DNA from: an uncultured Gammaproteobacteria bacterium
GTDB lineage: Bacteria > Patescibacteriota > Patescibacteriia > JAHIZJ01
Length of the DNA: 64,000 nucleotides
Assembly (NCBI GenBank): GCA_964594455.1
Contig: CAZQLY010000001.1
Location: 133,989 to 197,988 of the forward strand
Reading direction: 5' to 3'
The notes below the pieces were generated by a model. The model was not told the DNA's origin, made no database searches, and saw only the letters and a list, made by a program, of their open reading frames with translations. Shown in pieces: positions 1,703 to 57,372 of the stretch. Within the stretch, counting starts at the first letter, position 1. Every line of letters begins with the position of its first letter. The position numbers were made by a program, and so were the translations under genes.

Positions 1703-3430
1703 ATGTTTGTTTTAGCCGGATTTGCTTTTGTAGCAGGTGTTGTCACAATTCTATCACCCTGTATTCTGCCGTTGTTGCCGATTATCTTATCTAGCTCAAC
1801 CTCGGGAAGTAAGAAGAGGCCCTTCGGTGTGGTAACGGGTTTTGTTGTCAGCTTCACTTTTTTTACACTTTTTCTTTCCACCATAGTTAGTGCTACCGGG
1901 TTATCCGCGGGATTCTTACGCAACCTAGCTGTAGTTATTTTGATTGGTTTTGGCTTGAGCTTATTGATACCAAAAACTCAAGAATTACTCGAGAAGCTAT
2001 TTACCAATCTTTCTAACAAAACACCTCAGCAAAGAGAACGTAGTGGTTTTGGTGGCGGAGTAATAGTTGGTATTAGTTTGGGTTTAATCTGGACACCCTG
2101 CGTGGGCCCGATTCTGGCTTCGGTCATTTCGCTAGCTTTAACCGGCACAGTTTCCGGTACTGCATTAATAATTGCGCTGGCTTATTCAATCGGTACTGGG
2201 TTACCAATGCTGGCAATAATATTTGGTGGCCGACAACTGTTACAAAAAGTACCCTGGTTATTGCGCAATACCAGTAAAATACAAAAAGCTTTTGGCTTAC
2301 TAATGATTGTGACGGCAGTGGGTATACTTTTTAACGTCGATCGGACATTTCAATCTTACATTTTAGAAAAGTTTCCCAATTACGGATTGGGTTTGACGCA
2401 GATTGAGGACAACGAAACCGTTCAAAAAGAATTAGATAATTTAGATAATCAAAATATTAAAGAAGAAGATATGGGAAAACCAATGGACGAATTTATGGAC
2501 GATGAATCAGTACGCGCGCCTGAATTAATTAGCGGCGGCAGTTGGTTCAATTCAGAACCATTAAAGATTAGTGAGTTAAAAGGGAGGGTTGTATTGGTAG
2601 ACTTCTGGACTTATACCTGTATAAATTGCATTAGGACTTTGCCCTATATAGAAAATTGGTACGAAAAATACCAAGACAAAGGCTTGGTCATTGTTGGCGT
2701 ACACACTCCAGAGTTTGAATTTGAGAAAAACCCTGATAATGTAATGAAGGCCATTAAGGATTTTGGATTGACTTATCCAATAATGCAGGACAATGATTAT
2801 AAAACCTGGCGGGCCTATTCCAACCATTATTGGCCAGCCAAATATTTAATAGATAAGGATGGAAAAATACGCTACACTCACTTTGGAGAGGGGAAGTATG
2901 ACGAGTCAGAAAAATGGATCCAAATATTATTGGAAGAAACAGGATCTGACGTTCAATCAGACGCAATCAGCAACCAAGAATACGATATAAACAGCCGAAC
3001 TCCCGAACTATATTTGGGCTATTCCCGGATAGCCGCTTTAGCTTCTCCAGAAAGAATATCAGCCAACAAAGTTAGTCAATACAGTTTACCGAGCAAGTTA
3101 CCAGATAATACATTTGCTTATGTGGGGGATTGGAAACTCAACTCCGAATACGCAATACCAGAAGCTGGGTCTAGCTTGGTTTTGAATTACGAATCTCAGA
3201 ACGTGTTTTTGGTGATGAGATCCCAAGACGGTCCAGCTAAAATTCTGATAAGGCTGGATGGAAATGCTCTTGATTCCAATATGGCTGGAGTCGATTTGGT
3301 TGACTCGGGCGTGACAGTGGACATAGACAGGCTTTATACTTTAGTTCAAGCTGATTCACCTGGACAGCATCAACTGACTTTAGAATTCCCTGAAGGTGGA
3401 GTAGAGCTTTACGCATTTACGTTTGGTTAA
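1703..3430 (+). CDS. DipZ/DsbD-like protein: CcdA-type transmembrane electron-transfer domain fused to a TlpA/ResA-like thioredoxin domain
   Basis: N-terminal multi-TM CcdA-like domain with the SPC..P.LP motif; periplasmic domain with CINC (CxxC) in a VLVDFWTYTCINC context, typical of TlpA-like thiol:disulfide oxidoreductases. Confidence 0.75.
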   Translation: MFVLAGFAFVAGVVTILSPCILPLLPIILSSSTSGSKKRPFGVVTGFVVSFTFFTLFLSTIVSATGLSAGFLRNLAVVILIGFGLSLLIPKTQELLEKLFTNLSNKTPQQRERSGFGGGVIVGISLGLIWTPCVGPILASVISLALTGTVSGTALIIALAYSIGTGLPMLAIIFGGRQLLQKVPWLLRNTSKIQKAFGLLMIVTAVGILFNVDRTFQSYILEKFPNYGLGLTQIEDNETVQKELDNLDNQNIKEEDMGKPMDEFMDDESVRAPELISGGSWFNSEPLKISELKGRVVLVDFWTYTCINCIRTLPYIENWYEKYQDKGLVIVGVHTPEFEFEKNPDNVMKAIKDFGLTYPIMQDNDYKTWRAYSNHYWPAKYLIDKDGKIRYTHFGEGKYDESEKWIQILLEETGSDVQSDAISNQEYDINSRTPELYLGYSRIAALASPERISANKVSQYSLPSKLPDNTFAYVGDWKLNSEYAIPEAGSSLVLNYESQNVFLVMRSQDGPAKILIRLDGNALDSNMAGVDLVDSGVTVDIDRLYTLVQADSPGQHQLTLEFPEGGVELYAFTFG

Positions 3431-3519
3431 ATATTAAAGGATTGACATAGATCAGTCCTTTTGATAAGGTGGGTTCGCTCTTTAGCCAGCACTAGGCCAA
3501 TCTCGCCAAGGAGGCTGCT

Positions 3520-3852
3520 ATGAAAATCAAGAAGGTGTCGCTGGTAGACAGACCCAGTGATACGGAACTGGAAGCGTCTTTAGTTCAGGGAAAGGACGCC
3601 ACAATTGTGATCAGGGACCTTGAAGGTATTGTATTAGGTATCAGGGGTAGCCGGGTGGTTGTCAAGGTGGACGTTACTTCGGTGGGGCGAGTTTCTGGTC
3701 AGTCCAGACAGAGAGGCTTCATGGGCCACGTGAGGAGGGGGCCAGGAAACCATGTTTTCGTCGAGGGAGTGATCAATGATGATGAGGATGAGGGATGGGT
3801 GGCCGTAGTGCATGATCGAGAACCTTCGATCCAGCTGATGCCACAGGGATAA
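3520..3852 (+). CDS. Hypothetical protein (GC-rich islet)
   Basis: AAGGAGG SD 7 nt upstream; ends in ...DREPSIQLMPQG; its 3' end and terminator are duplicated at 5757-5890. Confidence 0.5.
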   Translation: MKIKKVSLVDRPSDTELEASLVQGKDATIVIRDLEGIVLGIRGSRVVVKVDVTSVGRVSGQSRQRGFMGHVRRGPGNHVFVEGVINDDEDEGWVAVVHDREPSIQLMPQG

Positions 3853-3869
3853 ACCCCTGTGGTTTTTTA
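3841..3869 (+). terminator. Rho-independent terminator (8-bp stem ccacaggg/ccctgtgg, then T7)
   Basis: Hairpin overlaps the stop codon of the 3520 gene and is followed by ttttttt. Confidence 0.7.
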
Positions 3870-3999
3870 TTGACAAGTGAAGCAATATTGCATAAGGTTG
3901 TTTTGTTCTTTGAAAGATTAAGGCATTGAAGCTTGTCACTATTTTAGTGATAAAACGGATTACACGACCAAGCCCAAACGGTGAAAGGAGGGGTTTACT

Positions 4000-5589
4000 A
4001 TGATTCGCTGGTTGCTTATCCTATTCCTGCTAGTTCTGCCAACTCTGAGTAGTGCAGATGAGCCAATGGACACTGAAATCTTAAGATTTCTTGTCATTCC
4101 CAACCCTGATTGTGGTCTAAACTGGACCTATCAGGACAACTACTTCGATCCGCTCAAAGCTAATCCAGAATTAGCCCTGGAAGACGTCACGGCTGCTTTG
4201 CGAAAAGATCGGGGATCTGATCCTCTCTATACGGCTCAGCTCAAACTTGATGCCGCTATTGTCTATGGTGAACTGGATTCTCCGGTGATGGCTCAGCGAT
4301 ATAACCAGGAAGCTCTGGATATGTTGGAGCGGTTGTATCGACGCAACCCGAGTGCTGAGTGCGCTTTTTTCATCGGTCAGGCCAAAGAACGTCTAGACCA
4401 GGACAAAGAAGCCAACGCCTGGTACGAGAAAGCTTACGAACATGATCCGAATTACTATCCTGCTGTGTTTGAGATGGTCAGTGAGGTTAGTTTCAAGGAT
4501 CAAGAGAAGGCTACTCTTTGGGCGAGACGGGCTAAGAGGCTGTCTGATAAACTGCTCGGCTCTGGGGCTGATGCCTCAATAAGAGCTGAAGTAGCTTATG
4601 AATTTGCCGGCGTCAGGTCCAGTATAATGGCTAGGAGTCAGGTCGTTGGCTGGTTTGACATGATTTGGGAATTGGCTGGAAGTGAAAGTGATGAATCTGA
4701 GTCGACCAAACAAGCCCTGACCAGCATGAAAAGCATGTTTGGATCACTGTGTTCTGAAGAGAATGTCAGCCTCCTCAAAACTGCAGCTGATCTTGATCCT
4801 ACCAACACCCAGCATCAAGTTGCCTATGTCGGAGCCAGACTGGGACAGATATTCTTTGGTGTATTCGACATCATTGCCGAGAAGGATGAGGATATTCCTG
4901 ATGATGAGGCGCGGCAGTATTTCAAACAGTGGTTTATTGATAACAGAACGGCCATCCAGTCTCTAAGAGATAAGCTGGAAGCCTTACCACCGGTTGAACG
5001 CCTTCGTTGCCCGGTTGTGCATTACTATCTAGCCTATGCAGACGTTCTTCTTGGCGAGTATACGATTGCATATACTGAGATCTGTGAGTTTATCCGGCTA
5101 AAACCGGACAATGACTCTGCTCAGTCATTGCTTTGCACCGTTATTGATCAGATGCCAGGAAGCAACCCGAACCTGGGCGACATCCTCATGACATACACCG
5201 AGAGGAAGTGTGAGCTGTATCCGACCATGGCAGATTGCTACCGCTATGGTTACCTCAAGTGGCTAACTGGTGATCTGGCTGGCAGTTATCAAGCATTTGC
5301 CCACTCGGCCTTGTTTGCAATTGAGGATTTTCGACCCAGACTGGCTTGTGCTGTAGTCATGCTTCAAAATGGCCAGACAGAAGACGCTCTATCGTTTGTC
5401 CAAACACTTGAGTTACATGAATCCGATCTAGTCGGTCAGGAAGAGGCATGCTATTACATACTCAAGTCAGTCATTGCAGCCCGAAGAGGTGATCTGGATA
5501 TCGCCAAATACTGGGCAGAAAAAGCAGCCAACCAAGACGATCTAACGCCTGAATCCCAAGCTTTGCTGAGCTATCTGAATGTTCGTTGA
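4000..5589 (+). CDS. Secreted TPR-like repeat protein (GC-rich islet)
   Basis: AAGGAGGGG SD; N-terminal signal peptide (LLILFLLVLPTLSSA); helical repeat-like composition with Tyr/Ala/Leu periodicity. Confidence 0.55.
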   Translation: MIRWLLILFLLVLPTLSSADEPMDTEILRFLVIPNPDCGLNWTYQDNYFDPLKANPELALEDVTAALRKDRGSDPLYTAQLKLDAAIVYGELDSPVMAQRYNQEALDMLERLYRRNPSAECAFFIGQAKERLDQDKEANAWYEKAYEHDPNYYPAVFEMVSEVSFKDQEKATLWARRAKRLSDKLLGSGADASIRAEVAYEFAGVRSSIMARSQVVGWFDMIWELAGSESDESESTKQALTSMKSMFGSLCSEENVSLLKTAADLDPTNTQHQVAYVGARLGQIFFGVFDIIAEKDEDIPDDEARQYFKQWFIDNRTAIQSLRDKLEALPPVERLRCPVVHYYLAYADVLLGEYTIAYTEICEFIRLKPDNDSAQSLLCTVIDQMPGSNPNLGDILMTYTERKCELYPTMADCYRYGYLKWLTGDLAGSYQAFAHSALFAIEDFRPRLACAVVMLQNGQTEDALSFVQTLELHESDLVGQEEACYYILKSVIAARRGDLDIAKYWAEKAANQDDLTPESQALLSYLNVR

Positions 5590-5756
5590 AGCTCCTTATA
5601 CTATTCCCCATGTTTCAGTTCATGGGTTTTTTTTATTGACATTTAATGAATATTATCGTAAGTTTTTGTTTATGTTTGAACCATCTTTATCTGTTCTTTG
5701 TCTTTGCAAATAGATAATTACCAATAGGTCATGGATTGAAAACATTGGGAGGAAAA

Positions 5757-5878
5757 ATGCGAGAAGCTGAGAAGGTCCAGTGGATTACTGGAACGGAATT
5801 AAATTGTCTAGACTGGGATGCCGTGGTAGGTGATTGAGAACCTTCGATCAAATTGGTCCCACAGGGTTAAAGGCCTCT
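5757..5878 (+). pseudogene. Degenerate partial duplicate of the 3' end of the 3520..3852 gene, with an in-frame TGA
   Basis: Translation ...LDWDAVVGD*EPSIKLVPQG* parallels ...EGWVAVVHDREPSIQLMPQG*; the 14-nt core gagaaccttcgatc is identical, and the downstream terminator is also shared. Confidence 0.4.
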
Positions 5879-5900
5879 GTGGTTTTTTATAATTGCATTG
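5844..5900 (+). repeat. Copy 2 of a roughly 57-bp repeat (gene 3' end, terminator hairpin, T-run, TTGACA); copy 1 is at 3817..3875
   Basis: Shared blocks gagaaccttcgatc, ccacaggg, ctgtggttttttat; both copies are followed by TTGACA. Confidence 0.6.
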
Positions 5901-6023
5901 ACATTATTAGGAAAGCATGCTACAGTACTTTGTCGACTTTAATTAGTCGACTACTTGCTCATTGAGTGCGGAAGTTTCGCACTAAAGACCCGGTTTTCAA
6001 ATATCGAAAGGAGGGATGCATAA

Positions 6024-6398
6024 GTGTCCCTTACGAGAAGTGGTAACCTCAGCAGTGGTAAGGCCTGGGAAATGGTTCCCAGTCAAAAGAGTTCAGTGAC
6101 AGAGGGCTCGCATTCCATCGTTCATGTGGTGGATGACCCTGATCTGAGTTCGGAAGAACTTCACGAGCTACTGGGTGTGGCCCAAACTTTGGCCTGTGAG
6201 CTCTCCGAGAGTCATGGAGAACCAGGCCGTTTCCGGATCGCCTACAATGGTCCAGCTCAGCGGGTCAGACCGACTCATCACATCCATATCATCCTACCCA
6301 AGGGAGAAGACGCACTGCCGCGTTTGGTGGCCAACATGAAGGACGTAGCCAGCACCATTCAACAGACTCTGGCCGGCGCCTTTCCCAAGAAGGGCTAG
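6024..6398 (+). CDS. HIT (histidine triad) family protein (GC-rich islet)
   Basis: Histidine triad HHIHIIL (H-x-H-x-H-x-x hydrophobic) near the C-terminus; GTG start 8 nt after AAGGAGGG. The start codon is uncertain: GTG at 6024 or an internal ATG. Confidence 0.5.
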   Translation: MSLTRSGNLSSGKAWEMVPSQKSSVTEGSHSIVHVVDDPDLSSEELHELLGVAQTLACELSESHGEPGRFRIAYNGPAQRVRPTHHIHIILPKGEDALPRLVANMKDVASTIQQTLAGAFPKKG

Positions 6399-6410
6399 TG
6401 AGCTGATACA

Positions 6411-6447
6411 AGCCCCGACAGCTAACGCTGCTTGGGGCTTTTCTTTA
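6411..6447 (+). terminator. Rho-independent terminator after the HIT gene
   Basis: agcccc...ggggct hairpin followed by tttctttat. Confidence 0.6.
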
Positions 6448-6451
6448 TATG

Positions 6452-6480
6452 AAAAAAGCAGTTAGGTTGTCCCTAACTGC
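6452..6480 (-). terminator. Rho-independent terminator after hutU (minus strand)
   Basis: 9-bp stem gcagttagg/cctaactgc preceded on the plus strand by aaaaaa, which is a U-run on the minus strand. Confidence 0.65.
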
Positions 6481-6491
6481 TGTGTAATGTG

Positions 6492-8537
6492 CTAGTTGAA
6501 CGCCTGCTCGACTGCGCGGCCAACAAATACAGGGTCAGAGTGATGCGGCAGTGTTATCTGCAGACGGGAATCGGCCGCCATGGATTCTTTGATGGAGAAC
6601 TCAGCCCCAGGATTGCTTCCGGTCCAAGCTCTGCGAGCCAGGCCGTTGTTGACGTCGATTGCCATGAGCATCCTAATGCGTCGGTCAGTATCATCAGTTC
6701 CATCGAGGATCAGACCAAAGCCGCCGTTGATGCCCTTACCCCAGCCAACACCTCCGCCGTTGTGGAGACAAGCCCAAGTGGCACCCGAGCGAATACTGGC
6801 CGCGAAATTATGTACTGCCATATCGGCACAACGATTGCTGCCGTCAGCAATATTGGCTGTTTCGCGGAGAGGAGAATCGGTTCCGCCTACGTCGTGGTGA
6901 TCTCTCCCCAGAGCAATGGGTCCGATTTCAGCGCGACGCACCAGGTCGTTAAAGGCCAAAGCCAGCAGTGTCCTACCCTCGCGATTGCTGTAGAGGATAC
7001 GCGCCTGGGATCCAACTACCAGCTTATGAAAATCAGCCTCTACAATCCAGCGCTGGTTGTCCTCAATCTGTTGTCTGATTTCAACGGGGGCTCGACTGAG
7101 CATATCATTGAAGATTATAATTGCTTCTGCGTCCGTACGTTTCAGATCCTTGAGTTGGCCGCTGAGACAAACCCAGCGGAACGGGCCAAAGCCATAATCG
7201 AAACAAATCGGACCCATCAGATCCCTCACATAGGAAGGGTATCGGAATCCATCAATGTCTCCTTCGATGTCAGCTCCTGAGGTTCTTGATTGATCCAAGA
7301 AAGAATTCCCGTAGTCGAAGAAGCGAGCACCACGTTCGACCAGAGAATTAATCAGGCTGACCTGTACCCGAATCGATTCATCGACCAGTTCCTTGAAACG
7401 TTCTGGATCATCTGCAATCATCTTGTCAGCGCGCTCCAGAGTCAAAGTGTGGGGGTGATACCCGCCGGAGTAAGGCAGGTGGCAAGAGGTTTGGTCTGAG
7501 ATGAGATCGATCTTAACATCCGAGCTTACCAAAGCATCCAACAGAGTTACGATGTTGCCCAGGTAGCCGAGCGACAAAGGCATTTTGGCCGTCATTGCTT
7601 CTTTGATCAGTCTTATGGCCTCACCCGCGTCATTCGTGGACTTGTCGATCCAACCATGTTCCAGCCTACGGTTCAGGGCTCTGGGATTCACCTCGGCGAT
7701 GATTGAAACGATACCGAGTATTTGAGCGGCTTTTCCTTGAGCGCCGCTCATACCACCCAGACCGGAGCTGACAAACAGCCTTCCTTTCAGGTCCTCAAGG
7801 TTATTGAGCCCGAAGTACTTGCGGAAGGCATTGAGGATGGTGATGGTTGTACCATGGACAATGCCCTGTGGTCCAATATAGAACCAGCCATTGGCTGTCA
7901 TTTGGCCATAGGATGTGAGTCCCAGGGCGGAAAGGTCATCATAGTCTTGATCGGTCGAATGCCTCGGAACCACCATTCCAGCTGTAGTAATCGTCCTGGG
8001 TTGGTCAGGTGAAGAAGGAAACAGTCCCAGAGGATGACCTGAGTAGACCTGGAGTGTGTGATACTGGGTCAGTTGTGAGAGATACATCATTGTCAAACGG
8101 TACTGTGCCCAGTTCTGGAAAACAGTACCGTTGTTGCCGTAGGTAACCAATTCATGCGGGAACTGAGCCACCTCCAATTCGTCCAAGTTGTTCTGGATGT
8201 TGAGCATCATGGCACGACCCTCAAGGCACTGGCCAGGATACCAATCAATCGGACGGGCGTACATGCGGTAAGAGGGACGGAATCTGTACATGTAGATCCG
8301 GCCGCGTTCTTTCAGCTCACGAGCGAATTCTGGCGCCAAGACGCTATGCCACTTTTCAGGGAAATAGCGCAAAGCGTTTTGAACAGCGAGAATGCGTTGA
8401 TCACTGGTGAGTTGATTCGGACGAGGAGGTGCATGATTAACCCCTTCATCCCATAACGGTTCCGGCGGTAGGTCGTCAGGAATACCCTCGGCGACCAAAC
8501 ACTGGAACTCTTCACGAGTAACTTCTACACCTGGCAT
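6492..8537 (-). CDS. hutU: Urocanate hydratase (urocanase), long form (GC-rich islet)
   Basis: Urocanase signatures GQMTANGWFYIGPQGIVHGT and SSGLGGMSGAQ. Start at MPGVEV (ATG at 8537) with GGAGGTG SD; the ORF-track start at 8612 looks like an upstream extension. The 681-aa length resembles long/eukaryote-like urocanases. Confidence 0.85.
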   Translation of the reverse strand: MPGVEVTREEFQCLVAEGIPDDLPPEPLWDEGVNHAPPRPNQLTSDQRILAVQNALRYFPEKWHSVLAPEFARELKERGRIYMYRFRPSYRMYARPIDWYPGQCLEGRAMMLNIQNNLDELEVAQFPHELVTYGNNGTVFQNWAQYRLTMMYLSQLTQYHTLQVYSGHPLGLFPSSPDQPRTITTAGMVVPRHSTDQDYDDLSALGLTSYGQMTANGWFYIGPQGIVHGTTITILNAFRKYFGLNNLEDLKGRLFVSSGLGGMSGAQGKAAQILGIVSIIAEVNPRALNRRLEHGWIDKSTNDAGEAIRLIKEAMTAKMPLSLGYLGNIVTLLDALVSSDVKIDLISDQTSCHLPYSGGYHPHTLTLERADKMIADDPERFKELVDESIRVQVSLINSLVERGARFFDYGNSFLDQSRTSGADIEGDIDGFRYPSYVRDLMGPICFDYGFGPFRWVCLSGQLKDLKRTDAEAIIIFNDMLSRAPVEIRQQIEDNQRWIVEADFHKLVVGSQARILYSNREGRTLLALAFNDLVRRAEIGPIALGRDHHDVGGTDSPLRETANIADGSNRCADMAVHNFAASIRSGATWACLHNGGGVGWGKGINGGFGLILDGTDDTDRRIRMLMAIDVNNGLARRAWTGSNPGAEFSIKESMAADSRLQITLPHHSDPVFVGRAVEQAFN

Positions 8538-8602
8538 AACACCTCCTATTGATGGTTTATTGACAAATCTGCGTTTACAAAGAACAAAAAAGCACTGTAA
8601 TA

Positions 8603-8631
8603 ATTTATACATAAATCAGTAATATGTCAAA
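8603..8631 (-). promoter_or_regulatory. Sigma70-like promoter for hutU (minus strand: TTGACA, 17 nt, TAAATT)
   Basis: Reverse complement reads tttgacatattactgatttatgtataaatt, about 65 nt upstream of the hutU start. Confidence 0.45.
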
Positions 8632-8642
8632 CAGTATTTTAT

Positions 8643-8677
8643 TAAAAAATGGGCGGCTGAATTGAATCAGCTCGCCC
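8643..8677 (-). terminator. Rho-independent terminator (minus strand) between the small ORF and the hutU promoter
   Basis: Minus-strand gggcgagctgattcaattcagccgccc hairpin followed by attttttaat. Confidence 0.6.
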
Positions 8678-8718
8678 AAAGGACCATGATTTCACGTCCG
8701 TGAAGCCTCGGATATTGG

Positions 8719-8850
8719 CTATTGGACGGAACCCTCTTCATCACCACCTTCGATGGCGATCTGCTTCGTGGTCCGACTTCTTCTTGCGAGCGACCTCTTC
8801 TCACACTCGACTGGCGACCCGCGTGGGGTCGCCGAGAATTGGATGAGCAT
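8719..8850 (-). CDS. Small ORF (43 aa) with a strong SD; hypothetical
   Basis: AAGGAGG 7 nt upstream of the ATG; followed by its own terminator. Competes with a plus-strand ORF at 8722..8907; coding status uncertain. Confidence 0.3.
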   Translation of the reverse strand: MLIQFSATPRGSPVECEKRSLARRSRTTKQIAIEGGDEEGSVQ

Positions 8851-8984
8851 CGTAAACCTCCTTATTGGAGTCCAAAAAGGAAGGGCCGCGCTCCTCGTAT
8901 CTACTAGGGTTGGCTAAAAGCCGACTGGAGCGGCGTAATCAGCCAGTAGCCATTACAGCACAGTCATTTTGGCCTCACCTCCTT

Positions 8985-9010
8985 TGCGGAAAACAGCTGC
9001 GGAAAACAGC
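8985..9010. repeat. Tandem direct repeat, 2 x 13 bp (tgcggaaaacagc)
   Basis: Exact tandem 13-mers in a GC-rich non-coding stretch (8700-9060). Confidence 0.7.
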
Positions 9011-9106
9011 GGAGTAGAAGCGAGCAACATGGGACAGTGGTTGGCACACATGAGAATAGCAGCGGCGACCTGATTGACATCGCCAATATAATTCTGGCAA
9101 TAAATA

Positions 9107-17626: not shown

Positions 17627-17660
17627 AAAAACCCACCAAAAAGGCGGGTGAGGAAAGAGC
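17625..17660 (-). terminator. Terminator repeat A (minus-strand hairpin cacccgcc-ttttt-ggtgggt then U7)
   Basis: aaaaaaacccaccaaaaaggcgggtgaggaaagagc; near-identical copies at 18058 and 18563. Confidence 0.6.
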
Positions 17661-17662
17661 GG

Positions 17663-20988: not shown

Positions 20989-21010
20989 TTAGTAGTATTA
21001 AACACGAGCC

Positions 21011-43509: not shown

Positions 43510-43510
43510 T

Positions 43511-44587
43511 ATGGTCAAAAAAGTTATCTACGAAGCTCATCCGCGAGACTATACTATTGTTGGTATATCGGAAGTTGCTCGTCATTATTGTACTAGCGGC
43601 TGGAAAGAGTTTAATGGACAGTTATTGGATGAATTTATCAACGTAATTGAGAACGGGAAATATATTTACTATGTTGAAGAGGACGGGCTTAATAAAATCA
43701 GCCAAGCGTTTATTAGATATAGGTTAAACAAGAACAAAGTTGATTTGCTGGGCATGTGGAAGAGGTTTGATAAAATGGTCGATGATTATTTCTCTCTGAT
43801 AAAATTACCCTACAGCAAATATTCCAAATATATGCTGTTGGATTTTTATGATTATTATATTAAGCTTCTGGGTCCGGCCTACACTGGTGCTTATGCTTTG
43901 GAATATATTGATGAAGTCAAGCCCTCAATAAAAAAACAGTTTACCGGTATTGCAAAAAAATTTCGCGACAAAGGAGAACTTATTTACAAAGACGGAGAAA
44001 GCAGGTTCATTCCAAAATATTTGAAATGGCTGTCCAAAAAAGAGTTGCCACAATACACTCCAGAACTAATGCAGTACATTTCGTGTAATGAAATGAAAAC
44101 CTGGCTTTTAACAAATAAAGGTTTGCCCAGTCCAAAAGAATTAAGATCAAGAAAGAAATTATTTGTCTTGAAGTATTATCCTGATGATAAGTTCCAAATC
44201 ATGACAGGCCAAAAGGCAAAAAAATATCTTAATAACATCAGATTAATGGAGCGCAGTACCTCGGGTGTTAAAAAGATGACAGGCACAACCGGTTATCCCG
44301 GAGTGGTTAAAGGTGTTGTAAAGATTGTGCGCTATCAGCATGAGATGAAAGGATTTAAAAACGGGCAGGTGCTGGTTTCTCCCATGACTCAGCCCAGCTT
44401 TTTAACCGTCATGAAAAAGGCTTCAGCCTTTATCACGGAAGAAGGTGGAACGCTTAGCCACGCCGCTATTGTGGCTCGAGAATTAAAAAAGCCTTGCGTT
44501 TTGGGAACAAAAGTTGCTACTAAAGTATTGAGAAATGGAGATAGAGTGACGGTAAACGCCACTACCGGAACCGTAAACAAGTTGTAG
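43511..44587 (+). CDS. PEP-utilizer phosphohistidine (swivel) domain protein, paralog 4
   Basis: C-terminal GQVLVSPMTQPSFLTVMKKASAFITEEGGTLSHAAIVARELKKPCVLGT; its N-terminal region shares short blocks with paralog 2 (YLKWLSKKELP vs YRRWLKTKKLP; GYPGVVKG vs AYQGVVKG). Confidence 0.7.
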   Translation: MVKKVIYEAHPRDYTIVGISEVARHYCTSGWKEFNGQLLDEFINVIENGKYIYYVEEDGLNKISQAFIRYRLNKNKVDLLGMWKRFDKMVDDYFSLIKLPYSKYSKYMLLDFYDYYIKLLGPAYTGAYALEYIDEVKPSIKKQFTGIAKKFRDKGELIYKDGESRFIPKYLKWLSKKELPQYTPELMQYISCNEMKTWLLTNKGLPSPKELRSRKKLFVLKYYPDDKFQIMTGQKAKKYLNNIRLMERSTSGVKKMTGTTGYPGVVKGVVKIVRYQHEMKGFKNGQVLVSPMTQPSFLTVMKKASAFITEEGGTLSHAAIVARELKKPCVLGTKVATKVLRNGDRVTVNATTGTVNKL

Positions 44588-47176: not shown

Positions 47177-47182
47177 TACACA

Positions 47183-47211
47183 TTGACACTACCTATTAAT
47201 TAAAATAAAAT
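47183..47211 (+). promoter_or_regulatory. Sigma70-like promoter (TTGACA, 17 nt, TAAAAT) for tdk
   Basis: ttgacactacctattaattaaaataaaat, followed by the 5'-UTR hairpin tgtgcg-gaggaa-cgcaca at 47213-47232. Confidence 0.5.
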
Positions 47212-47273
47212 CTGTGCGGAGGAACGCACATTATAGCCAAATCAGACATGAGAATAAAAGGAGGTGATTGGTT

Positions 47274-47915
47274 ATGGCTTGGGGCCCGAAAATAATCGTA
47301 GTCATCGGTTCAATGTATTCTGGTAAGACCGGTTTTCTTTTCCGTCTAGCGAGGCAACTTATCAGGATGAAGCGTCACGGCACAAATATTCCGTTTGTGT
47401 GGTTAAGGCCATCTATCGATACACGCGATGGAGACCAGAGTATGATCGTAACTCGCAACAGGGAAGTGTTGGAAGGCGTGGAAGCCATCATCTTTCGGGC
47501 CAGTCGACCCAGCGATATCCTGCGTCATCCGCAAGTGAGAGAGGCTAAGCTGGTTTTCATCGACGAATTGCAGTTTGCCGGCGCTCGACTTTATCGCACC
47601 GTGATAAAACTTCATGAGATGGGAAAACGAGTGATTCTTGCTGGGCTAGACATCGACCACATGGGTAGACCATTTGATACCACCGCCCGGGTTGCGCTAA
47701 TACCCGAAGCTAAAGTATTCAAATTGCGTGATGGCGTTTGCATCAGATGCGGTGCAGTAGCTACGCATTCGCTGCGATTGATAGATGGTATACCCGCACC
47801 AGCAGACTCTCCCAGATTTATGGTTCAAGGTCAAGAAAAGGTTGATTACGAACCCGTATGTAGGAGGTGTCAGATAGGGGCATATGATAAAGCCGGCATT
47901 AGTTTCTTCTTCTAG
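47274..47915 (+). CDS. tdk: Thymidine kinase (GC-rich islet)
   Basis: P-loop GSMYSGKTG, C-terminal zinc ribbon (CIRCG...CRRC); AAGGAGGTG SD 9 nt upstream of the ATG (the track's TTG at 47268 is too close to the SD). Confidence 0.8.
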   Translation: MAWGPKIIVVIGSMYSGKTGFLFRLARQLIRMKRHGTNIPFVWLRPSIDTRDGDQSMIVTRNREVLEGVEAIIFRASRPSDILRHPQVREAKLVFIDELQFAGARLYRTVIKLHEMGKRVILAGLDIDHMGRPFDTTARVALIPEAKVFKLRDGVCIRCGAVATHSLRLIDGIPAPADSPRFMVQGQEKVDYEPVCRRCQIGAYDKAGISFFF

Positions 47916-47968
47916 CCTTAGCCTTCAGCTCACTAGAGTGAAGGCTTTTTTTATGGTAAAATAATGGC

Positions 47969-52302: not shown

Positions 52303-52325
52303 ATATCTGTGGATAAAAACAGCAT

Positions 52326-52354
52326 TGACCGAATATCATTCAGGTGATATGCTC
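52326..52354 (+). promoter_or_regulatory. Sigma70-like promoter (TTGACC, 17 nt, TATGCT) upstream of the pyrBI leader
   Basis: ttgaccgaatatcattcaggtgatatgct. Confidence 0.4.
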
Positions 52355-52364
52355 TGTTTCAGAT

Positions 52365-52443
52365 ATGAATAACCACGGAATGAAACAAGTGAATAGGAGG
52401 GCTAAGGCCTGAGGAAATCCCCGGATGACGGGGAATTTTTTTT
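52365..52443 (+). promoter_or_regulatory. Putative attenuator: 15-codon leader ORF (MNNHGMKQVNRRAKA) followed by an intrinsic terminator hairpin (tccccg-gatga-cgggga, then T8) upstream of pyrBI
   Basis: The leader ORF ends 6 nt before a perfect 6-bp-stem hairpin and a U8 tract; pyrBI starts about 70 nt downstream. The architecture recalls the E. coli pyrBI attenuator; the leader has no obvious SD. Confidence 0.35.
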
Positions 52444-52513
52444 GGTCTGAAGCTCTGTGGTTATAGAATGTACGTTGATAATCGGGCATGAAAAACACGC
52501 AAGGAGGGGGTTG

Positions 52514-53992
52514 ATGAAACACGTAATCAGCGCGCAGGATTTCCGGGCTGACTGGGTTCAGGAGGTGCTGGAGCGAGCCACTTTCAATATCGAAACCTAC
52601 CGTAGTGGTGAGCCGAAGGGACACAAAAGCACCAAGGCGACAGTGTTCATTGCTGAGCCAAGCACCCGGACCAGCGGGTCCTATAGTGAGGCTGCCCGAC
52701 TGGCCGGCTGTGCCAGGGAGGGTATTTCTGGCGCCGATCTGACTTCATTGGTCAAAGGTGAAACTTTAGGAGCGACCGGTAGAATGTTCAGTGGCCAGAA
52801 CACAGCACTGCTGCCTATTCGCACTAGGATCGAAGGAGGAGCCAGGTGGCTGACCGAGATGTTCGCGATGGAGGGTTATGAATACCTGACCGCAGTTCAT
52901 AACTGCGGCGATGGATCCAACGAACATCCGACTCAAGCCTTGCTTGATCTGCTGACGATCCAGCAGAAATTGAATCGCTTAACAGACCTGAAGATCGGGT
53001 TTGTAGGTGATCTGAGGAACAGCCGGACGGTTCACTCATTGGTCGGGGTTCTCAGGCTTTTCACTGGCATCAAGATTGTCCTGGTGTCTTCACCATCAGT
53101 CAAACTGCCTGGGTGGTACACCGAAGGAATGGAGGTTGAGCAATCACAAGAGATTGAGGCGCTCCGTGGATGCGACGTTGTCTATGTCACGCGTGTCCAA
53201 GCAGAGCGTTTCGGTGGCAACAAGGTAGAGTATGAGCGTGTCCGGGGCCTGTATTCAATTGGCGTCAAGGAATTGGAGTTGATTGGTCCTAAGACTCAGA
53301 TAATGCATCCTCAGCCGATCAATCAGACTGACCGTGATATCGATCCGAGGATTTGGCGTCATCCGCAAGTGGTCATGGATTTTCAAGCTCAGATGGGAAT
53401 TCCAATGCGCATGGCTCTGATCGAATGGTCGTTGGCTCATATCAAGGACAGTGTTGTATCTGAAGCTCCTAAGCCAGGAATCGCTGTTTTGAGCGAGCGC
53501 TCAGCTGGCGAGGCCTTGCGGGCCAAGCATGCGAGGAATCAATACTTCACGCCAATTGAGCGGGGAACGGTTATCGATCACATTCCGCACGGCTTGGGCG
53601 CGAAGGTTGAAGCAGTATCTAACGCTGAAGCTAATAACGGCGATGGTGCTGTCCTGTTGCTCAAGAGACTCCGGACTCAAGGTGATCCTGGGACCAAGGA
53701 TGTGTTGGTAATCGAGGACGGATTCCTGTCTGATGCGGAGAAAGCAGCTATCTCGGTGATTGCACCAAGTGCGGTCTTCAACGAGATCAGAGAGGGACAA
53801 ATCATCAAGATGCGAGTCGAATCGGTTTCACAGATCGGCATCGGCAAGTGTCCCAATTCCAACTGCATTACCCAACAGGACATCGAAGCCGCACTGTATC
53901 CTGGTTTCAGTATCGTGATTGAAGACGGCGGACACATCAGACTGGTCTGCCGCTACTGCGAAAGACACTTCCATCGCGAGGAAGTGATCTAG
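52514..53992 (+). CDS. pyrBI: Aspartate carbamoyltransferase with fused catalytic (PyrB) and regulatory (PyrI) chains (GC-rich islet)
   Basis: PyrB motifs STRT (EPSTRTSGS), HPTQ (EHPTQALLD), HPQP; C-terminal about 160 aa with a PyrI-like allosteric domain and a 4-Cys zinc domain (CPNSNC...CRYC). Start at ATG 52514, 6 nt after AGGAGG. Confidence 0.8.
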   Translation: MKHVISAQDFRADWVQEVLERATFNIETYRSGEPKGHKSTKATVFIAEPSTRTSGSYSEAARLAGCAREGISGADLTSLVKGETLGATGRMFSGQNTALLPIRTRIEGGARWLTEMFAMEGYEYLTAVHNCGDGSNEHPTQALLDLLTIQQKLNRLTDLKIGFVGDLRNSRTVHSLVGVLRLFTGIKIVLVSSPSVKLPGWYTEGMEVEQSQEIEALRGCDVVYVTRVQAERFGGNKVEYERVRGLYSIGVKELELIGPKTQIMHPQPINQTDRDIDPRIWRHPQVVMDFQAQMGIPMRMALIEWSLAHIKDSVVSEAPKPGIAVLSERSAGEALRAKHARNQYFTPIERGTVIDHIPHGLGAKVEAVSNAEANNGDGAVLLLKRLRTQGDPGTKDVLVIEDGFLSDAEKAAISVIAPSAVFNEIREGQIIKMRVESVSQIGIGKCPNSNCITQQDIEAALYPGFSIVIEDGGHIRLVCRYCERHFHREEVI

Positions 53993-54008
53993 CATTTGTT
54001 CATTCATC

Positions 54009-54040
54009 GGGAGAAGTCATCTGACCTCTCCCTTTTTTTA
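54009..54040. terminator. Hairpin terminator between convergent pyrBI and miaA
   Basis: gggaga-agtcatctgacc-tctccc then ttttttt; the T-run overlaps the miaA stop. Confidence 0.6.
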
Positions 54041-54913: not shown

Positions 54914-54995
54914 TGGCCGTAGTTTATCTCAATGATATAGTGATTGCGTTGATAGTGATGGTTCTTTATGACGCGAACAGAAGGAGGGAAGAAAT

Positions 54996-55490
54996 GTGAT
55001 AGACGAGATCTTTTTTGCTTGGACGGCTATATGGCAGGAACAGACCACGGCTGTTGCTATGTACCTTGCTGGGTACGCTTTCTGGAAAGGTTACATAGTC
55101 CTAGTCAGCGGATCTAGCATTGGGATAATCATCTGCTATTTCTTTCCTGATTATACCAAATGGCTGGGTCAGCGGACAGTCGAGTCGATAGAAACAGCCA
55201 CACAGAGAAGGCTGCGCGATACCCGCCTCATGATTTGGTGTCAGCACTACTGGCTAGCTATTGAGAAGGCACGGGCGAGATTAATCGATCGGATAGTTGC
55301 AAACAATTATCCTCAACTGATTGTCTTTGCCAGTACAGCCATACCAATACCTTTTCTCTGGCTGGCTCCGATAGCCGCCACCAGGATTCTGAAGCTGCGA
55401 CGGGGATTTACGATCGTCTATTCAGCCAGTGTCGTGCGATCGTTGATAATTGCACTGGTAACATATCGGGTCCTAGTAACGTTAAAATAA
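54996..55490 (+). CDS. Membrane protein, hypothetical (moderately GC-rich)
   Basis: GTG start 7 nt after AGGAGGG; 4 TM helices. Confidence 0.45.
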   Translation: MIDEIFFAWTAIWQEQTTAVAMYLAGYAFWKGYIVLVSGSSIGIIICYFFPDYTKWLGQRTVESIETATQRRLRDTRLMIWCQHYWLAIEKARARLIDRIVANNYPQLIVFASTAIPIPFLWLAPIAATRILKLRRGFTIVYSASVVRSLIIALVTYRVLVTLK

Positions 55491-55493
55491 CGC

Positions 55494-56858
55494 TTATCGT
55501 TTTTTAGGCGAAGAGCGTTTTTTTAATTCTCCCGTTAGATTCCAGGCTGTAGCTGATGTTACATTAACAGTTTTAAAACGACCTGTTAGATCACTGGTTG
55601 ATTTTACTCTGATATTTTTAAATCCGTAAGTTTTACCGTCACAATAGCCTTTCTGACATTTTTCAAAAAGAACCCGCTGTTCTGAATTAATCAATTTTTT
55701 GTTTTTCGCTAAAGCCACTTTTTTCAAAATTGAATTAAGGTTTTTTTCTCGCGTAGCTTTTATATCATGTGGAATATCATCTTTAAGTCTGGCTGCCATA
55801 GTACCGGGTCGGGGCGAGTATTGAGCAATATAAGCCATATCAAATTTAACCTCTTTGACTAGCTGACAAGTTTTTTGGAAATCTGATTCAGTTTCTCCGC
55901 AAAAACCTACAATAATGTCAGTTGATATTACAGCGTTTGGAATTTGTTTTTTTATTTTATTTATCTGTTCTTTATAGTGTTCAATAGTATAAAGCCGATT
56001 CATTCTTTTTAAAACTTCATTGCTTCCGGATTGTACTGCTAGGTGAATATAAGGCGTTATTTTTTTATTACTAGCTACTGTTTTAATTAAATTTTCGTCC
56101 ATATCGTAGGGGTGGCTGGTAATAAACCTAATCCAGAAGTCACCGGGCAGAATAGCAATATTTTTCAGCAGGGTAGGGAAATTCATTGGGTTATTTACCG
56201 CTCTTTTGTTGATTTCCAGTTGACCCTGAGCTCCTTTTTTATGAATTAATACCTTTCCTTTGGGGTGGTTTATAGCCACTCCTTCGAAATCCCAGCCATA
56301 AGAGTTTACGTTTTGCCCAAGCAAGGTGATTTCTTTATATCTCTTCTTAATTAATTGTTTTATTTCGTAAATAATATCATCGGGAGGACGAGATACTTCA
56401 CGGCCACGAGTGTAGGGGACAGCGCAGTAACTGCAGAATTTATTGCAGCCGGTTGAAATCGGAACAAAAGCCTGGAATTTAGAATTATAGTTTGGTTTTA
56501 TGGTTAAGTATTCTTCCCTGGCTGTGTTTTTGGCTTTTTTATTGATTAATAGAGCGGGTAATTCTTGAATATCTTTGATCGGCAATATATGATCAAACAC
56601 TTCGGACATTTTTATTTTGTCTAAATCCAAAACACAGCCGGTTAATATTGTAATGGCGCCTGTCTGCTTCCAGCGTCTGGCTCGTCCATAAATACGATCA
56701 ACCGCTTTTTGTCTGACCGCGCAAGCCACAACTAAAATCAGATCGGCCAAGCTTTCCTTGTTTGTCCTACGGTAGTTAAGCTCCTTTAATATAGTCTCCA
56801 GGCGTTCAGCGTCGGAGATGTTCATCTGACAACCAAAAACCTGTATATAATATTTCAT
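55494..56858 (-). CDS. miaB: Radical-SAM methylthiotransferase, MiaB-like (tRNA ms2i6A synthase)
   Basis: N-terminal MTTase domain (VFGCQMN), radical SAM CNKFCSYCAVPYTRG, C-terminal TRAM; adjacent to miaA. RimO not excluded. Confidence 0.8.
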   Translation of the reverse strand: MKYYIQVFGCQMNISDAERLETILKELNYRRTNKESLADLILVVACAVRQKAVDRIYGRARRWKQTGAITILTGCVLDLDKIKMSEVFDHILPIKDIQELPALLINKKAKNTAREEYLTIKPNYNSKFQAFVPISTGCNKFCSYCAVPYTRGREVSRPPDDIIYEIKQLIKKRYKEITLLGQNVNSYGWDFEGVAINHPKGKVLIHKKGAQGQLEINKRAVNNPMNFPTLLKNIAILPGDFWIRFITSHPYDMDENLIKTVASNKKITPYIHLAVQSGSNEVLKRMNRLYTIEHYKEQINKIKKQIPNAVISTDIIVGFCGETESDFQKTCQLVKEVKFDMAYIAQYSPRPGTMAARLKDDIPHDIKATREKNLNSILKKVALAKNKKLINSEQRVLFEKCQKGYCDGKTYGFKNIRVKSTSDLTGRFKTVNVTSATAWNLTGELKKRSSPKKR

Positions 56859-56931
56859 ATAATGATATTAATAAATTACCCCTCGTGTTGAAATGGTACG
56901 AGGGGCATTTACTCTTGCCTGATCGTTTGTG

Positions 56932-57285
56932 TTATTGTTCCAACCCCTCATCATTGTCTTCTGCCTCCTCCCTGGCTGTAGTCCTCGCTGCACATTGTTG
57001 TGCTTCGGTGAAGATGTCCACGATACCACTGATTGATTCTTGTACCTGCCTGGCTGCGATCTTCTCGGCCGATCTCACTGCCGGTTCTGGGTAGCCTCTC
57101 AAGCTTAATTCCTCTGGATGAGAGAATATTGGACTCGACAATAGACCCAGCAATCGAGACATGGTGTTGCGGTCAATCCGTCCTTCTTGATAAAGCCACT
57201 GGATGTCGACTCCTGCCTGCCTTAACCCCTGACGGAGCTTAGCCAGGTAGGCGGTTCTAGGAGTTACTTCTGTCATGGCGATCAC
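56932..57285 (-). CDS. Hypothetical protein (GC-rich islet)
   Basis: 117 aa, acidic C-terminus; GAGGTGAT SD; a hairpin (cccctcgt...acgagggg) at 56878-56904 lies downstream. Confidence 0.4.
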   Translation of the reverse strand: MIAMTEVTPRTAYLAKLRQGLRQAGVDIQWLYQEGRIDRNTMSRLLGLLSSPIFSHPEELSLRGYPEPAVRSAEKIAARQVQESISGIVDIFTEAQQCAARTTAREEAEDNDEGLEQ

Positions 57286-57372
57286 CTCGATTCAGACCAG
57301 GGCAAGAGTAATAAAGAGGTGAAAGGATCGTGACACTATCGTAGCAGGTGATATTTTATTGTCAAATGGGTA

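Follow-up and report, generated by a model that had tools for sequence, protein, structure and literature searches.

Shine-Dalgarno-led, GC-rich gene cassettes between the AT-rich operons of a 64-kb stretch of Patescibacteria-type DNA

Results

A GC mosaic with two kinds of genes

The DNA stretch analyzed here (hereafter, the window) comprises 64 kb of contig CAZQLY010000001.1, in which islets of GC-richer genes are interspersed in an AT-rich gene backbone. The GC content was segmented with a 500-bp profile and with a two-state hidden Markov model (HMM) on G/C. The profile showed blocks of 48-57% GC against surroundings of 32-44%, and the HMM separated eight segments of high GC content (3468-5571, 6010-9084, 18065-20429, 22892-23949, 25150-25875, 34944-35372, 52396-53981, and 56879-57303), which contained 48-54% GC versus 35-41% in the remaining segments. 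These eight segments sum to 11,768 bp, that is, 18.4% of the window. The original prediction, made from the letters of the DNA alone, had described ten GC-rich islets. Its claim of heterogeneity was upheld, as neither GC content nor codon usage was uniform, and all eight HMM segments fall on islets that it had listed; four islets (17630-18064, 27790-28230, 47180-47930 with tdk, and 54960-55500), however, were not split off by the HMM, and their genes are only of intermediate GC content (46-49%).

We compared 15 islet genes with 44 backbone genes (45 in the case of orientation) of the window. A Shine-Dalgarno (SD) site was called when GGAGG, AGGAG, or GAGGT was present 4-14 nt 5' of the start, and a terminator was called when a hairpin with a T-run was present at most 90 nt past the stop. 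Strong SD sites preceded 12 of the 15 islet genes versus 2 of the 44 backbone genes (Fisher p=3.3e-8), and terminators followed 12/15 and 5/44 genes, respectively (p=1.8e-6). The view that the islets carry strong SD sites and private terminators and that the backbone mostly lacks SD sites was thus confirmed. In addition, 7/15 islet genes run antiparallel to the local backbone versus 0/45 backbone genes (p=1.7e-5), a feature that the original prediction had not mentioned. A sigma-70-like promoter was predicted 40-180 nt 5' of 11-12 of the 15 islet genes. The start regions also differed. The 30 nt upstream of the starts contained 23% GC in the backbone and 45% in the islets, and the predicted folding energy of the region from -30 to +30 was -5.5 kcal/mol for backbone starts versus -10.3 kcal/mol for islet starts (p=2e-6), meaning that the islet starts are more structured.

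The codon usage was shifted as well. The GC content at third codon positions (GC3) of individual genes ranged from 0.45 to 0.64 in the islets and from 0.31 to 0.47 in the backbone, and the relative synonymous codon usage showed a general move of the islet genes to G/C-ending codons, including AAG, GAG, and CTG. The Lys content was 3.3% in islet proteins versus 9.1% in backbone proteins. No two of the islet proteins are paralogs, and most of them are orphans; a Pfam search with the eight small islet open reading frames (ORFs) at E values up to 5 gave only one weak match, of the VTT-like type. Taken together, the statistics of promoter, 5' untranslated region (5'UTR) with SD site, ORF, and terminator indicate that each islet gene is a complete unit, whereas the backbone is almost free of such signals.

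Anatomy of the islet units

The first islet begins on the plus strand with a cassette (3508-3868) for a hypothetical protein of 110 amino acids. It has the SD site AAGGAGG at 3508, the ORF at 3520-3852, and a terminator at 3840-3863, with a GC content of 0.52. It is followed on the same strand by a cassette (3985-5626, GC 0.48) for a TPR protein of 529 amino acids, with the SD site AAGGAGG, the ORF at 4000-5589, and a terminator at 5607-5626; the N-terminal segment of the translation resembles a signal peptide by eye, and the protein is probably secreted. A remnant lies further downstream (5747-5890, plus strand). It consists of an SD-led ORF of 26 codons and then the truncated 3' end of the 110-amino-acid gene with its terminator (74% identity). 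This partial copy, which came up as repeat D2 and was compared by local alignment and translation, has an in-frame TGA and is a decaying duplicate. The next cassette (5898-6446, plus strand, GC 0.55) has a predicted promoter TTGACA-17-TACAGT (5898-5926), the SD site AAGGAGG, an ORF for 124 amino acids at 6024-6398, and a terminator at 6412-6446. This ORF had been labeled as a HIT protein, but Pfam and PDB sequence searches gave no family match to support the label, although a motif HHIHII is present. By contrast, Pfam bore out the labels of urocanase, OPT, beta-helix, TPR, thymidine kinase, and fused PyrB-PyrI.

The cassette of the long-form urocanase (681 amino acids; 6452-8630, minus strand, GC 0.52) is antiparallel to the backbone. 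Its predicted promoter is at 8630-8602, the SD site is AGGAGGT, the ORF lies at 6492-8537, and the terminator at 6481-6452. Upstream of it on the same strand is a mini-cassette (8644-8868) with the SD site AAGGAGGT, an ORF of 43 codons at 8719-8850, and a terminator at 8644-8677. An SD-led mini-ORF of 4 codons was also observed upstream of the urocanase gene, within 8644-8990 of the minus strand.

The second islet lies on the minus strand. Its first ORF (17631-17968, 101 amino acids) is the weakest member of the set, with no SD site, a GC content of 0.46, and a terminator at 17631-17649. A cassette for 130 amino acids follows (18064-18556), with a predicted promoter at 18556-18529, the SD site GAGGAGGT, the ORF at 18094-18486, and a terminator at 18064-18082. 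The OPT oligopeptide transporter (598 amino acids; 18564-20410, GC 0.54, GC3 0.63) has a weak SD site, AAAGGGGG, the ORF at 18598-20394, and a terminator at 18564-18589. The 35-nt terminator regions at 17622-17656 and 18055-18089 are 94% identical, although they stand behind two adjacent small ORFs that are unrelated. We considered a family of attC-like hairpins and rejected it, because the 3' hairpins of the cassettes are unrelated in sequence save two local duplicates. A repeat search of the window for att- or attC-like boundary elements likewise returned only the local duplications D2 and D10.

Two single-gene islets follow on the plus strand. The first (22848-23996, GC 0.53) encodes a probably secreted right-handed beta-helix protein of 365 amino acids, with the SD site TAGGAGGT, the ORF at 22862-23959, and a terminator at 23971-23996. 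The second (25115-25924, GC 0.53, GC3 0.64) encodes a TPR protein of 254 amino acids whose N-terminus looks, by eye, like a lipoprotein signal; it has the SD site GGGAGGAG, the ORF at 25125-25889, and a terminator at 25900-25924. Two less complete members are found on the minus strand. One is an ORF for 90 amino acids (27908-28196, GC 0.46), which has the SD site GGAGGTG, was not called by the HMM, and showed no terminator in the search; the other is an ORF for 190 amino acids (34974-35563, GC 0.49) between gyrB and a CDP-alcohol phosphatidyltransferase gene, which has the SD site AAGGAGGT and no called terminator.

The tdk cassette (47183-47951, plus strand) has a predicted promoter TTGACA-17-TAAAAT (47183-47211), the SD site AAAGGAGGTG, the thymidine kinase ORF at 47277-47915, and a terminator at 47921-47951. 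The pyrBI unit (52325-54038, plus strand) contains a predicted promoter (52325-52353), a leader ORF of 15 codons (52365-52412), a hairpin with T8 (52418-52443), the SD site AAGGAGGGGG (52501-52510), the fused PyrB-PyrI gene (52517-53992, 491 amino acids), and a terminator (54009-54038). In Pfam, OTCace_N, OTCace, PyrI, and PyrI_C were all found in this one ORF. Between miaA and miaB lies an antiparallel cassette on the plus strand (54981-55524) for a membrane protein of 164 amino acids, which is the protein with the weak VTT-like match and no other; its SD site is GAAGGAGGG, the ORF lies at 54996-55490, and the terminator at 55490-55524. Finally, between miaB and thrS, the minus strand carries an ORF for 117 amino acids (unit 56879-57303, ORF 56932-57285, GC 0.52) with a predicted promoter TTGACA-16-TACGAT and no canonical SD site at the called start.

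The backbone and the sites of insertion

Judging from its proteins and gene order, the backbone is a stretch of the chromosome of a member of the Patescibacteria (the CPR, or candidate phyla radiation). GyrB is 81% and 69% identical to the proteins of two metagenome-assembled genomes (MAGs) annotated as Patescibacteria group and about 65% identical to those of Falkowbacteria and Uhrbacteria. The order gyrB-(secE region)-nusG-rplK-rplA...dut-thyX-tmk-gatB-miaA-miaB-thrS-dnaE is kept in many relatives. Pfam also identified MiaA, MiaB, thioredoxin/DsbD, a UvrD-type helicase, PheST, dCMP deaminase, a ThyX in tandem form, four paralogs with a PEP-utiliser domain, and a protein like spermine synthase. 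Up to 52.1 kb every backbone gene lies on the plus strand, and from 54.0 kb every one lies on the minus strand. The cumulative GC skew climbs to about 54 kb and then reaches a plateau, and the region of 52.1-54.0 kb may be a replication terminus or a strand-switch point. Scans of the 64-kb window for tRNAs and Rfam families gave no match; thus, the window offers no tRNA as a target site, and neither a known riboswitch nor a PyrR element is present.

The scarcity of SD sites is not limited to the window. In the loci of 27 relatives with 32-57% GC, only 0-18% of the ORFs were SD-led, and we therefore regard this scarcity as a trait of the lineage and not as a by-product of AT richness. In the backbone of the window, only rplA (37949) and gatB (49015) have SD-like motifs. 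The gatB motif (AAGGAG or GAGGAG) was seen again in two relatives, L094 and L087; an SD site is thus retained by a few genes of the core as well. The anti-SD motif has been reported missing only in a subgroup of Parcubacteria (PMC9297842). Our search for the 3' end of 16S rRNA, where the anti-SD lies, gave nothing in the window or in any of the fetched loci of relatives.

The junctions between islets and backbone are also present in independent data. The Logan contig L082 (SRR7048224) is 100% identical to positions 16820-22684 of the window (5,865 bp) and spans the OPT islet together with the junction on either side. L081, a contig of a different sample (DRR203642), is 89% identical over positions 900-7307, has the same junction at about 3.5 kb, and shows the same gene order as the window (DsbD, 110-amino-acid gene, TPR, 124-amino-acid gene, and urocanase). 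Furthermore, the tdk, pyrBI, 117-amino-acid, and 164-amino-acid units stand between the same backbone genes in MAGs or contigs of other projects (L087, L088/L089, and L094). These results rule out the chimeric assembly that the original prediction had offered as its alternative.

The islet genes interrupt a gene order that is conserved in relatives, since this order recurs without the islets in L002, L016, L022, and L083, the last of which was the one useful relative from a metagenome scan with miaB. That is, miaA and miaB are adjacent in L016, L022, and L083, thyX and tmk are adjacent in L083, and gyrB is about 340 bp from nusG in L002 and L083. In L091, gyrB abuts the CDP-alcohol phosphatidyltransferase gene. 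The distribution of the islet genes differed from one to another. The 190-amino-acid gene was absent at its junction in all relatives seen (L091, L002, and L083). The 164-amino-acid gene at miaA/miaB was common only to L094 (49% identity, with SD site and terminator) and was absent in L016, L022, L083, L087, and L088. The tdk gene was common to L087 and L088 and absent in L083, and the contig of L094 stops short of the tdk site. The 117-amino-acid gene had orthologs at the same site in L087 and L088 (34-38% identity), which are still GC-rich, and was absent from L094. The pyrBI gene was at the same locus in L087, L088, L094, and L091, and L090 and L095 have members of its family elsewhere.

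As tdk, pyrBI, and the 117-amino-acid gene are common to family-level relatives, they are old residents. The original prediction had proposed repeated horizontal acquisition in general; a recent acquisition does not fit these three genes, which predate family-level splits. The spread of islet GC3 values likewise indicates neither a single donor nor a single age. The window also contains accessory genes that are AT-rich, namely the PEP-utiliser paralogs, the spermine-synthase-like gene, and a gene for 144 amino acids. It follows that a gene is not GC-rich simply by being accessory.

The comparison with L081 gave information on the first islet. The synonymous divergence (dS) was 0.61-0.78 for thioredoxin and DsbD and 0.66 for the 3' part of the urocanase gene, and it was 0.12-0.20 for the 110-amino-acid, TPR, and 124-amino-acid genes, with the 110-amino-acid gene at only 0.12. 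Since the value for urocanase is like that of the backbone, urocanase predates the split from the DRR203642 strain. A tract of about 3.2 kb, from about 3500 to about 6700, is 93-98% identical to L081; its left edge is the backbone/islet junction and its right end lies inside the urocanase gene. The tract has the look of a recent replacement by homologous recombination inside an islet already present in both strains, in which case islet DNA still moves between close relatives.

Origin of the cargo genes

The best matches of the urocanase, apart from itself, were 59% identical to this long form of about 675 amino acids. Those with a name belong to taxa of the FCB group (Fermentibacteria, Krumholzibacteria, Bacteroidota, and CSSED10-310). 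The two top matches that were placed in context have neighboring genes for multihaem cytochromes, Cu/Zn-SOD, gamma-glutamyl transpeptidase, and MacB transporters, and they lie on contigs of 70-73% GC whose genes have SD sites; these contexts are clearly not of the CPR. For OPT, an exhaustive HMMER search found one representative with 62% identity, annotated as Candidatus Eisenbacteria (MBU1698796.1), and all others were at most 43% identical. These matches support a transfer of urocanase and OPT, probably not a recent one, from high-GC, SD-using bacteria outside the phylum.

By best matches, the lineage is foreign for urocanase and OPT, whereas it is Patescibacteria for pyrBI and specific to the clade for tdk. 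The proposal of a high-GC, SD-using donor was supported for the first two genes and did not fit the last two. The Tdk protein retrieved only itself and the protein of L088 (59% identity), followed by proteins of at most 39%, and the L087 protein is 43% identical to it. That is, tdk is closer to L088 than to L087, yet the backbone genes are closer to L087. Either fast evolution or replacement of tdk in one lineage would account for this pattern. Scans of viral contigs with Tdk, the beta-helix protein, and OPT, a search that reaches close relatives only, gave no relatives.

The homologues of the fused PyrB-PyrI number about 25 and form a ladder of identities (69, 63, 62, 58, 55, 49...38%), with several annotated as Patescibacteria or Kerfeldbacteria, whereas unfused aspartate transcarbamoylases (ATCases) appeared only at 35-40% identity. 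By these matches, the fused pyrBI appears to be a Patescibacteria-wide family. No other gene of the pyrimidine de novo pathway was found in the window or in the loci of relatives that we examined. The gatB-pyrBI-miaA locus is kept even in the relative with 55% GC, where pyrBI is compositionally normal.

The leader of pyrBI was found in four genomes, at 52325-52443 of the window, about 9800-9930 of L087, about 9830-9945 of L088, and about 4380-4500 of L094. A conserved promoter stands at its head. Its ORF of 15-16 codons starts at an invariant CAGATATG and holds an invariant GGAGGC...GCCTG, and its terminator (CCCCGG..CGGGG with T7-8) lies about 5 nt past the leader stop and about 70 nt before the SD site of pyrBI. 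From this conserved layout of leader ORF and hairpin, the hairpin upstream of pyrBI would be regulatory and not the end of another gene, and the leader is a putative attenuator that resembles the enterobacterial pyrL in layout. In Escherichia coli, pyrBI is controlled by the pyrL leader attenuator, and in Thermotoga maritima PyrB and PyrI are fused. The layout in the window, compared without regard to sequence, is like that of E. coli in that the promoter is separated from pyrB by a short leader ORF and an intrinsic terminator, and the protein is like that of T. maritima in that a single polypeptide comprises the catalytic and the regulatory chain. Unlike pyrL, however, the window leader stops about 5 nt before the hairpin rather than running through it, and it is A-rich, not U-rich.

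Persistence of the signals and of the composition

The cassettes of relatives were found to have kept their state. The GC content of the orthologous cassettes compared with that of their neighbors was 0.52-0.54 vs 0.38-0.42 in L087, 0.54 vs 0.39-0.49 in L088, and 0.45-0.48 vs 0.36-0.40 in L094. In these three relatives most of the orthologs of the tdk, pyrBI, 117-amino-acid, and 164-amino-acid genes are led by AAGGAGG or GAGGAGG; those of the 117-amino-acid gene have only motifs like GGGGGGTG or AAGGTGGTG, which the SD pattern did not call. An SD site precedes pyrBI in the window, L087, L088, L094, L095, and L090, being kept even in relatives with 61-63% GC (AAGGAG, GAGGTG), and it precedes tdk in the window, L087, and L088. 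Most of the orthologous cassettes still end in terminators. The hairpins of pyrBI and tdk are recognizably homologous, with what appear, by eye, to be compensatory changes. The tdk promoter and a neighboring GCGGAGG in the 5'UTR are invariant in three genomes. This GCGGAGG belongs to the invariant sequence CTGnGCGGAGG, located where the tdk mRNA is predicted to begin, which makes a second SD-like element about 35 nt before the real SD site and might be a 5' stabiliser.

The identity between the window and L087 at four-fold sites was 0.23-0.37 for backbone genes and 0.35 for pyrBI, and about 0.26 is expected at saturation, given the base composition of these sites. Four-fold sites are thus saturated in both classes of genes. 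On account of this saturation, we rejected simple amelioration of foreign DNA as the cause of the pyrBI offset. We compared the GC3 of pyrBI with the backbone median, which is our reading of the per-gene values, in seven genomes. The backbone median and the pyrBI value were 0.33 and 0.46 in L094, 0.38 and 0.58 in the window, 0.41 and 0.60 in L087, 0.51 and 0.60 in L088, 0.63 and 0.66 in L091, 0.79 and 0.83 in L095, and 0.80 and 0.82 in L090. That is, the backbone GC3 follows the composition of each genome, whereas that of pyrBI stays near 0.5-0.6, as if buffered, where the genome is AT-rich. In the relatives with 55-63% GC it is only about 0.02-0.04 above the backbone, which makes the two indistinguishable.

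Because the offset outlasts saturation, an additional gene-specific force on composition must be assumed, which might be biased repair or selection that acts on the composition of the mRNA or of the codons. We do not attribute the high GC3 to translational selection, as rplK and rplA have a GC3 of only 0.42-0.43 and the islets also prefer AAG, GAG, and CTG.

Recurrence in other Patescibacteria

Of the 432 ORFs in 31 Patescibacteria loci, 25 were SD-led, and these were on average 5 points higher in GC and 8.7 points higher in GC3 than the local median (p=1e-8). In 26 more distant loci, terminators followed 8/19 SD-led ORFs vs 39/355 other ORFs (p=9e-4). SD-led GC-rich genes also occupy the same gaps elsewhere, with two between gyrB and nusG in L004 and one between gatB and miaA in L016. 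Horizontal gene transfer (HGT) and genomic islands have been documented in Patescibacteria, where they cover up to 13% of genomes (PMC12455944).

Discussion

Without great confidence, we lean toward the reading that autonomous SD-dependent cassettes were acquired in several epochs by an SD-independent genome, and that an additional force has held their composition. The backbone is strictly co-oriented and packed in operons, and it would be translated without SD pairing, from unstructured A/U-rich leaders. Into the gaps between its operons about 15 genes may have entered at different times and in either orientation, each with a sigma-70-type promoter, a 5'UTR of 35-90 nt with a near-consensus SD site, a GC-richer and Lys-poor ORF, and its own hairpin terminator. 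Urocanase and OPT would have come from outside the phylum, that is, from high-GC, SD-using relatives of the FCB type or of Eisenbacteria, and the fused pyrBI, tdk, and the 117- and 164-amino-acid genes would be old residents common to family-level relatives. We suppose that purifying selection retains the SD sites because GC-rich structured start regions would be unfit for the SD-independent route, and that the cassettes need terminators, being independent units that often converge with neighboring operons. Only those incoming genes that bring or quickly gain the full set of signals would be expressed and kept.

Several results weigh against this explanation. If the offset of pyrBI were a remainder of foreign composition, then, in a hand calculation with an F81-type relaxation, the deviation would fall to about 0.23-0.36 of its value per lineage since the split of the window and L087. 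To leave the present +0.20, the GC3 would have had to be about 0.9 or higher when the two lineages split, and still earlier it would have had to take values that are impossible. In addition, the offsets of pyrBI, tdk, and the 117-amino-acid gene are unchanged in L087 and L088 despite saturation, so the decay expected with residence time is not seen. The identities of pyrBI (69, 62, 54, and 43%) track the backbone phylogeny, as would suit a fused family specific to Patescibacteria. Both pyrBI and tdk are without a detectable donor, and 'foreign' is said of them only on account of their composition and signals. No integrase or transposase Pfam domain was found among the genes scanned, and the window has no tRNA and no shared flanking repeat. 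As for the recurrence in other Patescibacteria, we estimate that about 10 SD calls among the 432 ORFs, roughly half of the SD-led ones, are expected by chance.

A tentative picture, to which we give a rather low probability, combines the two origins. In Patescibacteria of this clade, two regimes would stand side by side, an SD-independent, AT-rich operonic core and an SD-dependent, GC-buffered, monocistronic, and self-terminated minority, of which a part came by HGT and a part is ancient. It is equally tentative that selection holds this minority at a gene-specific optimum (GC3 about 0.5-0.6) while the GC3 of the backbone ranges from 0.33 to 0.8. If this were true, the SD class could be a translational regulon that is controlled separately, for example through the availability of the anti-SD.

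It is rather unlikely, in our opinion, that the genome is natively of two regimes, such that the SD-led, GC-richer, monocistronic genes are a conserved class of Patescibacteria genes which is not foreign and is held by selection. The same low probability applies to the detailed form, in which this class is conditionally expressed and SD-dependent and has stable, structured mRNAs, and the SD-independent backbone follows mutational drift. The old cassettes agree well with such a class. The pyrBI, tdk, 117-amino-acid, and 164-amino-acid genes keep promoter, SD site, terminator, and GC offset at the same loci despite saturation, the SD site of pyrBI persists at high genomic GC and its identities follow the backbone, and the conserved leader attenuator would make pyrBI a fully integrated, regulated gene. 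The triad of SD site, GC content, and terminator also recurs in distant Patescibacteria. A native class, however, does not account for urocanase and OPT, whose nearest homologues are outside the phylum, and the cassettes break conserved synteny, are patchy among relatives, and in 7 of 15 cases are antiparallel to a fully co-oriented backbone. Moreover, the islet proteins are mutually unrelated and mostly orphan, and the near lack of a GC3 rise in the ribosomal protein genes excludes ordinary translational selection.

The original prediction had named repeated acquisition from a high-GC, SD-using donor, which can be read as a recent series from one donor, not yet ameliorated. The islets are indeed alike in the SD site AAGGAGG, the terminators, and the shift to G/C-ending codons, and both urocanase and OPT point to bacteria of the FCB type or Eisenbacteria. 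Nevertheless, we consider a single recent donor improbable, because the best foreign identities are only 59-62%, urocanase differs from the gene of the DRR203642 strain by a dS of 0.66, tdk, pyrBI, and the 117-amino-acid gene are older than family-level splits, and the islet GC3 varies from 0.45 to 0.64.

We give similarly little credence to recombination hot spots with GC-biased gene conversion, in which flexible loci would be swapped among strains and repair would raise the GC content. The tract at about 3500-6700, with dS of 0.12-0.20 inside and 0.6-0.8 outside, and the patchy presence of the small cassettes among relatives are what such swapping would produce. The mechanism is unlikely because the spacers inside the islet are AT-rich (3853-3999 and 5590-6023, each 38% GC) and the GC edges follow ORF ends, not tract ends; the tract stops inside urocanase, and the rest of that gene is equally GC-rich. 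It also leaves the SD sites, terminators, and foreign homologues unexplained. That the assembly is chimeric, or that fragments of contaminating DNA were wrongly joined to the contig, is hardly conceivable, since nothing favors it apart from the composition itself, the junctions recur in L082 at 100% and in L081 at 89% identity, the same cassettes hold the same backbone positions in L087, L088, L089, and L094, and ten alternations with edges exactly at gene ends would be demanded.

The acquisition of cassettes, to which we return, can be compared with known systems. Genomic islands and islets, together with their amelioration, are said to be a concept of Lawrence and Ochman. The islets of the window are like such horizontally acquired DNA in their atypical GC content and codon usage, their insertion into synteny, their patchiness, the foreign homologues of two genes, and their accessory cargo (surface proteins, a transporter, and salvage enzymes). 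They differ from genomic islands in that single genes occupy about ten scattered sites without the hallmarks of integrase, tRNA, and repeats, in that each unit brings a set of promoter, SD site, and terminator that the host backbone lacks, and in that the offset of the old cassettes outlasts synonymous saturation. They are like integron cassettes in being single-gene units with a hairpin-forming 3' sequence. Unlike integron cassettes, the units are dispersed, have their own promoter and SD site, and lack intI and a shared attC-like family, and their hairpins precede T-runs as in ordinary intrinsic terminators.

Bacteroidota reportedly have SD-independent translation with a few conserved SD-led genes, such as rpsU in Flavobacterium johnsoniae, according to the Fredrick laboratory and others. 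The window resembles them in its scarce SD sites, its A/U-rich unstructured starts, and the strong SD sites that are conserved in a few of its genes. It differs in phylum. Moreover, its SD-led genes have a higher GC content and terminators of their own, they are often antiparallel, and some of them, at least, are xenologs.

HGT into CPR genomes is known. In the literature searched, we found no description of SD-led GC-rich cassettes in the CPR, of an SD-poor phylum in which SD site, terminator, and GC offset are tightly coupled with one another and with free orientation, or of the persistence of this coupling beyond synonymous saturation. Less is known about the expression of foreign genes where the host's own genes have neither SD sites nor intrinsic terminators. 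That the acquired or accessory genes are complete units suggests that only self-sufficient cassettes survive and that the ribosomes are still able to use SD sites. The old cassettes such as pyrBI and tdk offer a testable exception to neutral amelioration, and they bear on what determines GC content within a genome. In practice, accessory genes in MAGs of Patescibacteria would be marked more sharply by the combination of SD site, terminator, orientation, and GC content than by GC content alone, and the mosaic argues against throwing out such contigs as chimeras. The cargo itself (OPT, urocanase, thymidine kinase, ATCase, and the apparently secreted TPR and beta-helix proteins) hints at uptake, salvage, and contact with a host.

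Other features of the window

Three features of the backbone were also observed. At 39766-44587 there are four tandem paralogs ending in a PEP-utilisers mobile domain, which are 65-73% alike over their final 185 nt (repeat family D1). The first paralog (39766-40413) has 41% GC; the other three, together with an interleaved HAD hydrolase gene, have 34-38% GC and are AT-richer than the backbone. These paralogs sit in a nucleotide cluster of dCMP deaminase, kinase, dUTPase, ThyX, Tdk, and Tmk genes; L087 and L088 have them as well, but L083 does not.

The ThyX at 45442-47142 (566 amino acids) has two Thy1 stretches, that is, it is a tandem-duplicated flavin-dependent thymidylate synthase, and this form is kept in L087, L088, and L083. 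Directly 3' of gyrB, at 35561-36610, lie the genes for the CDP-alcohol phosphatidyltransferase and for a CarS-like protein (CDP-archaeol synthase family), and this pair is kept in the relative with 55% GC (L091, 451-1466).

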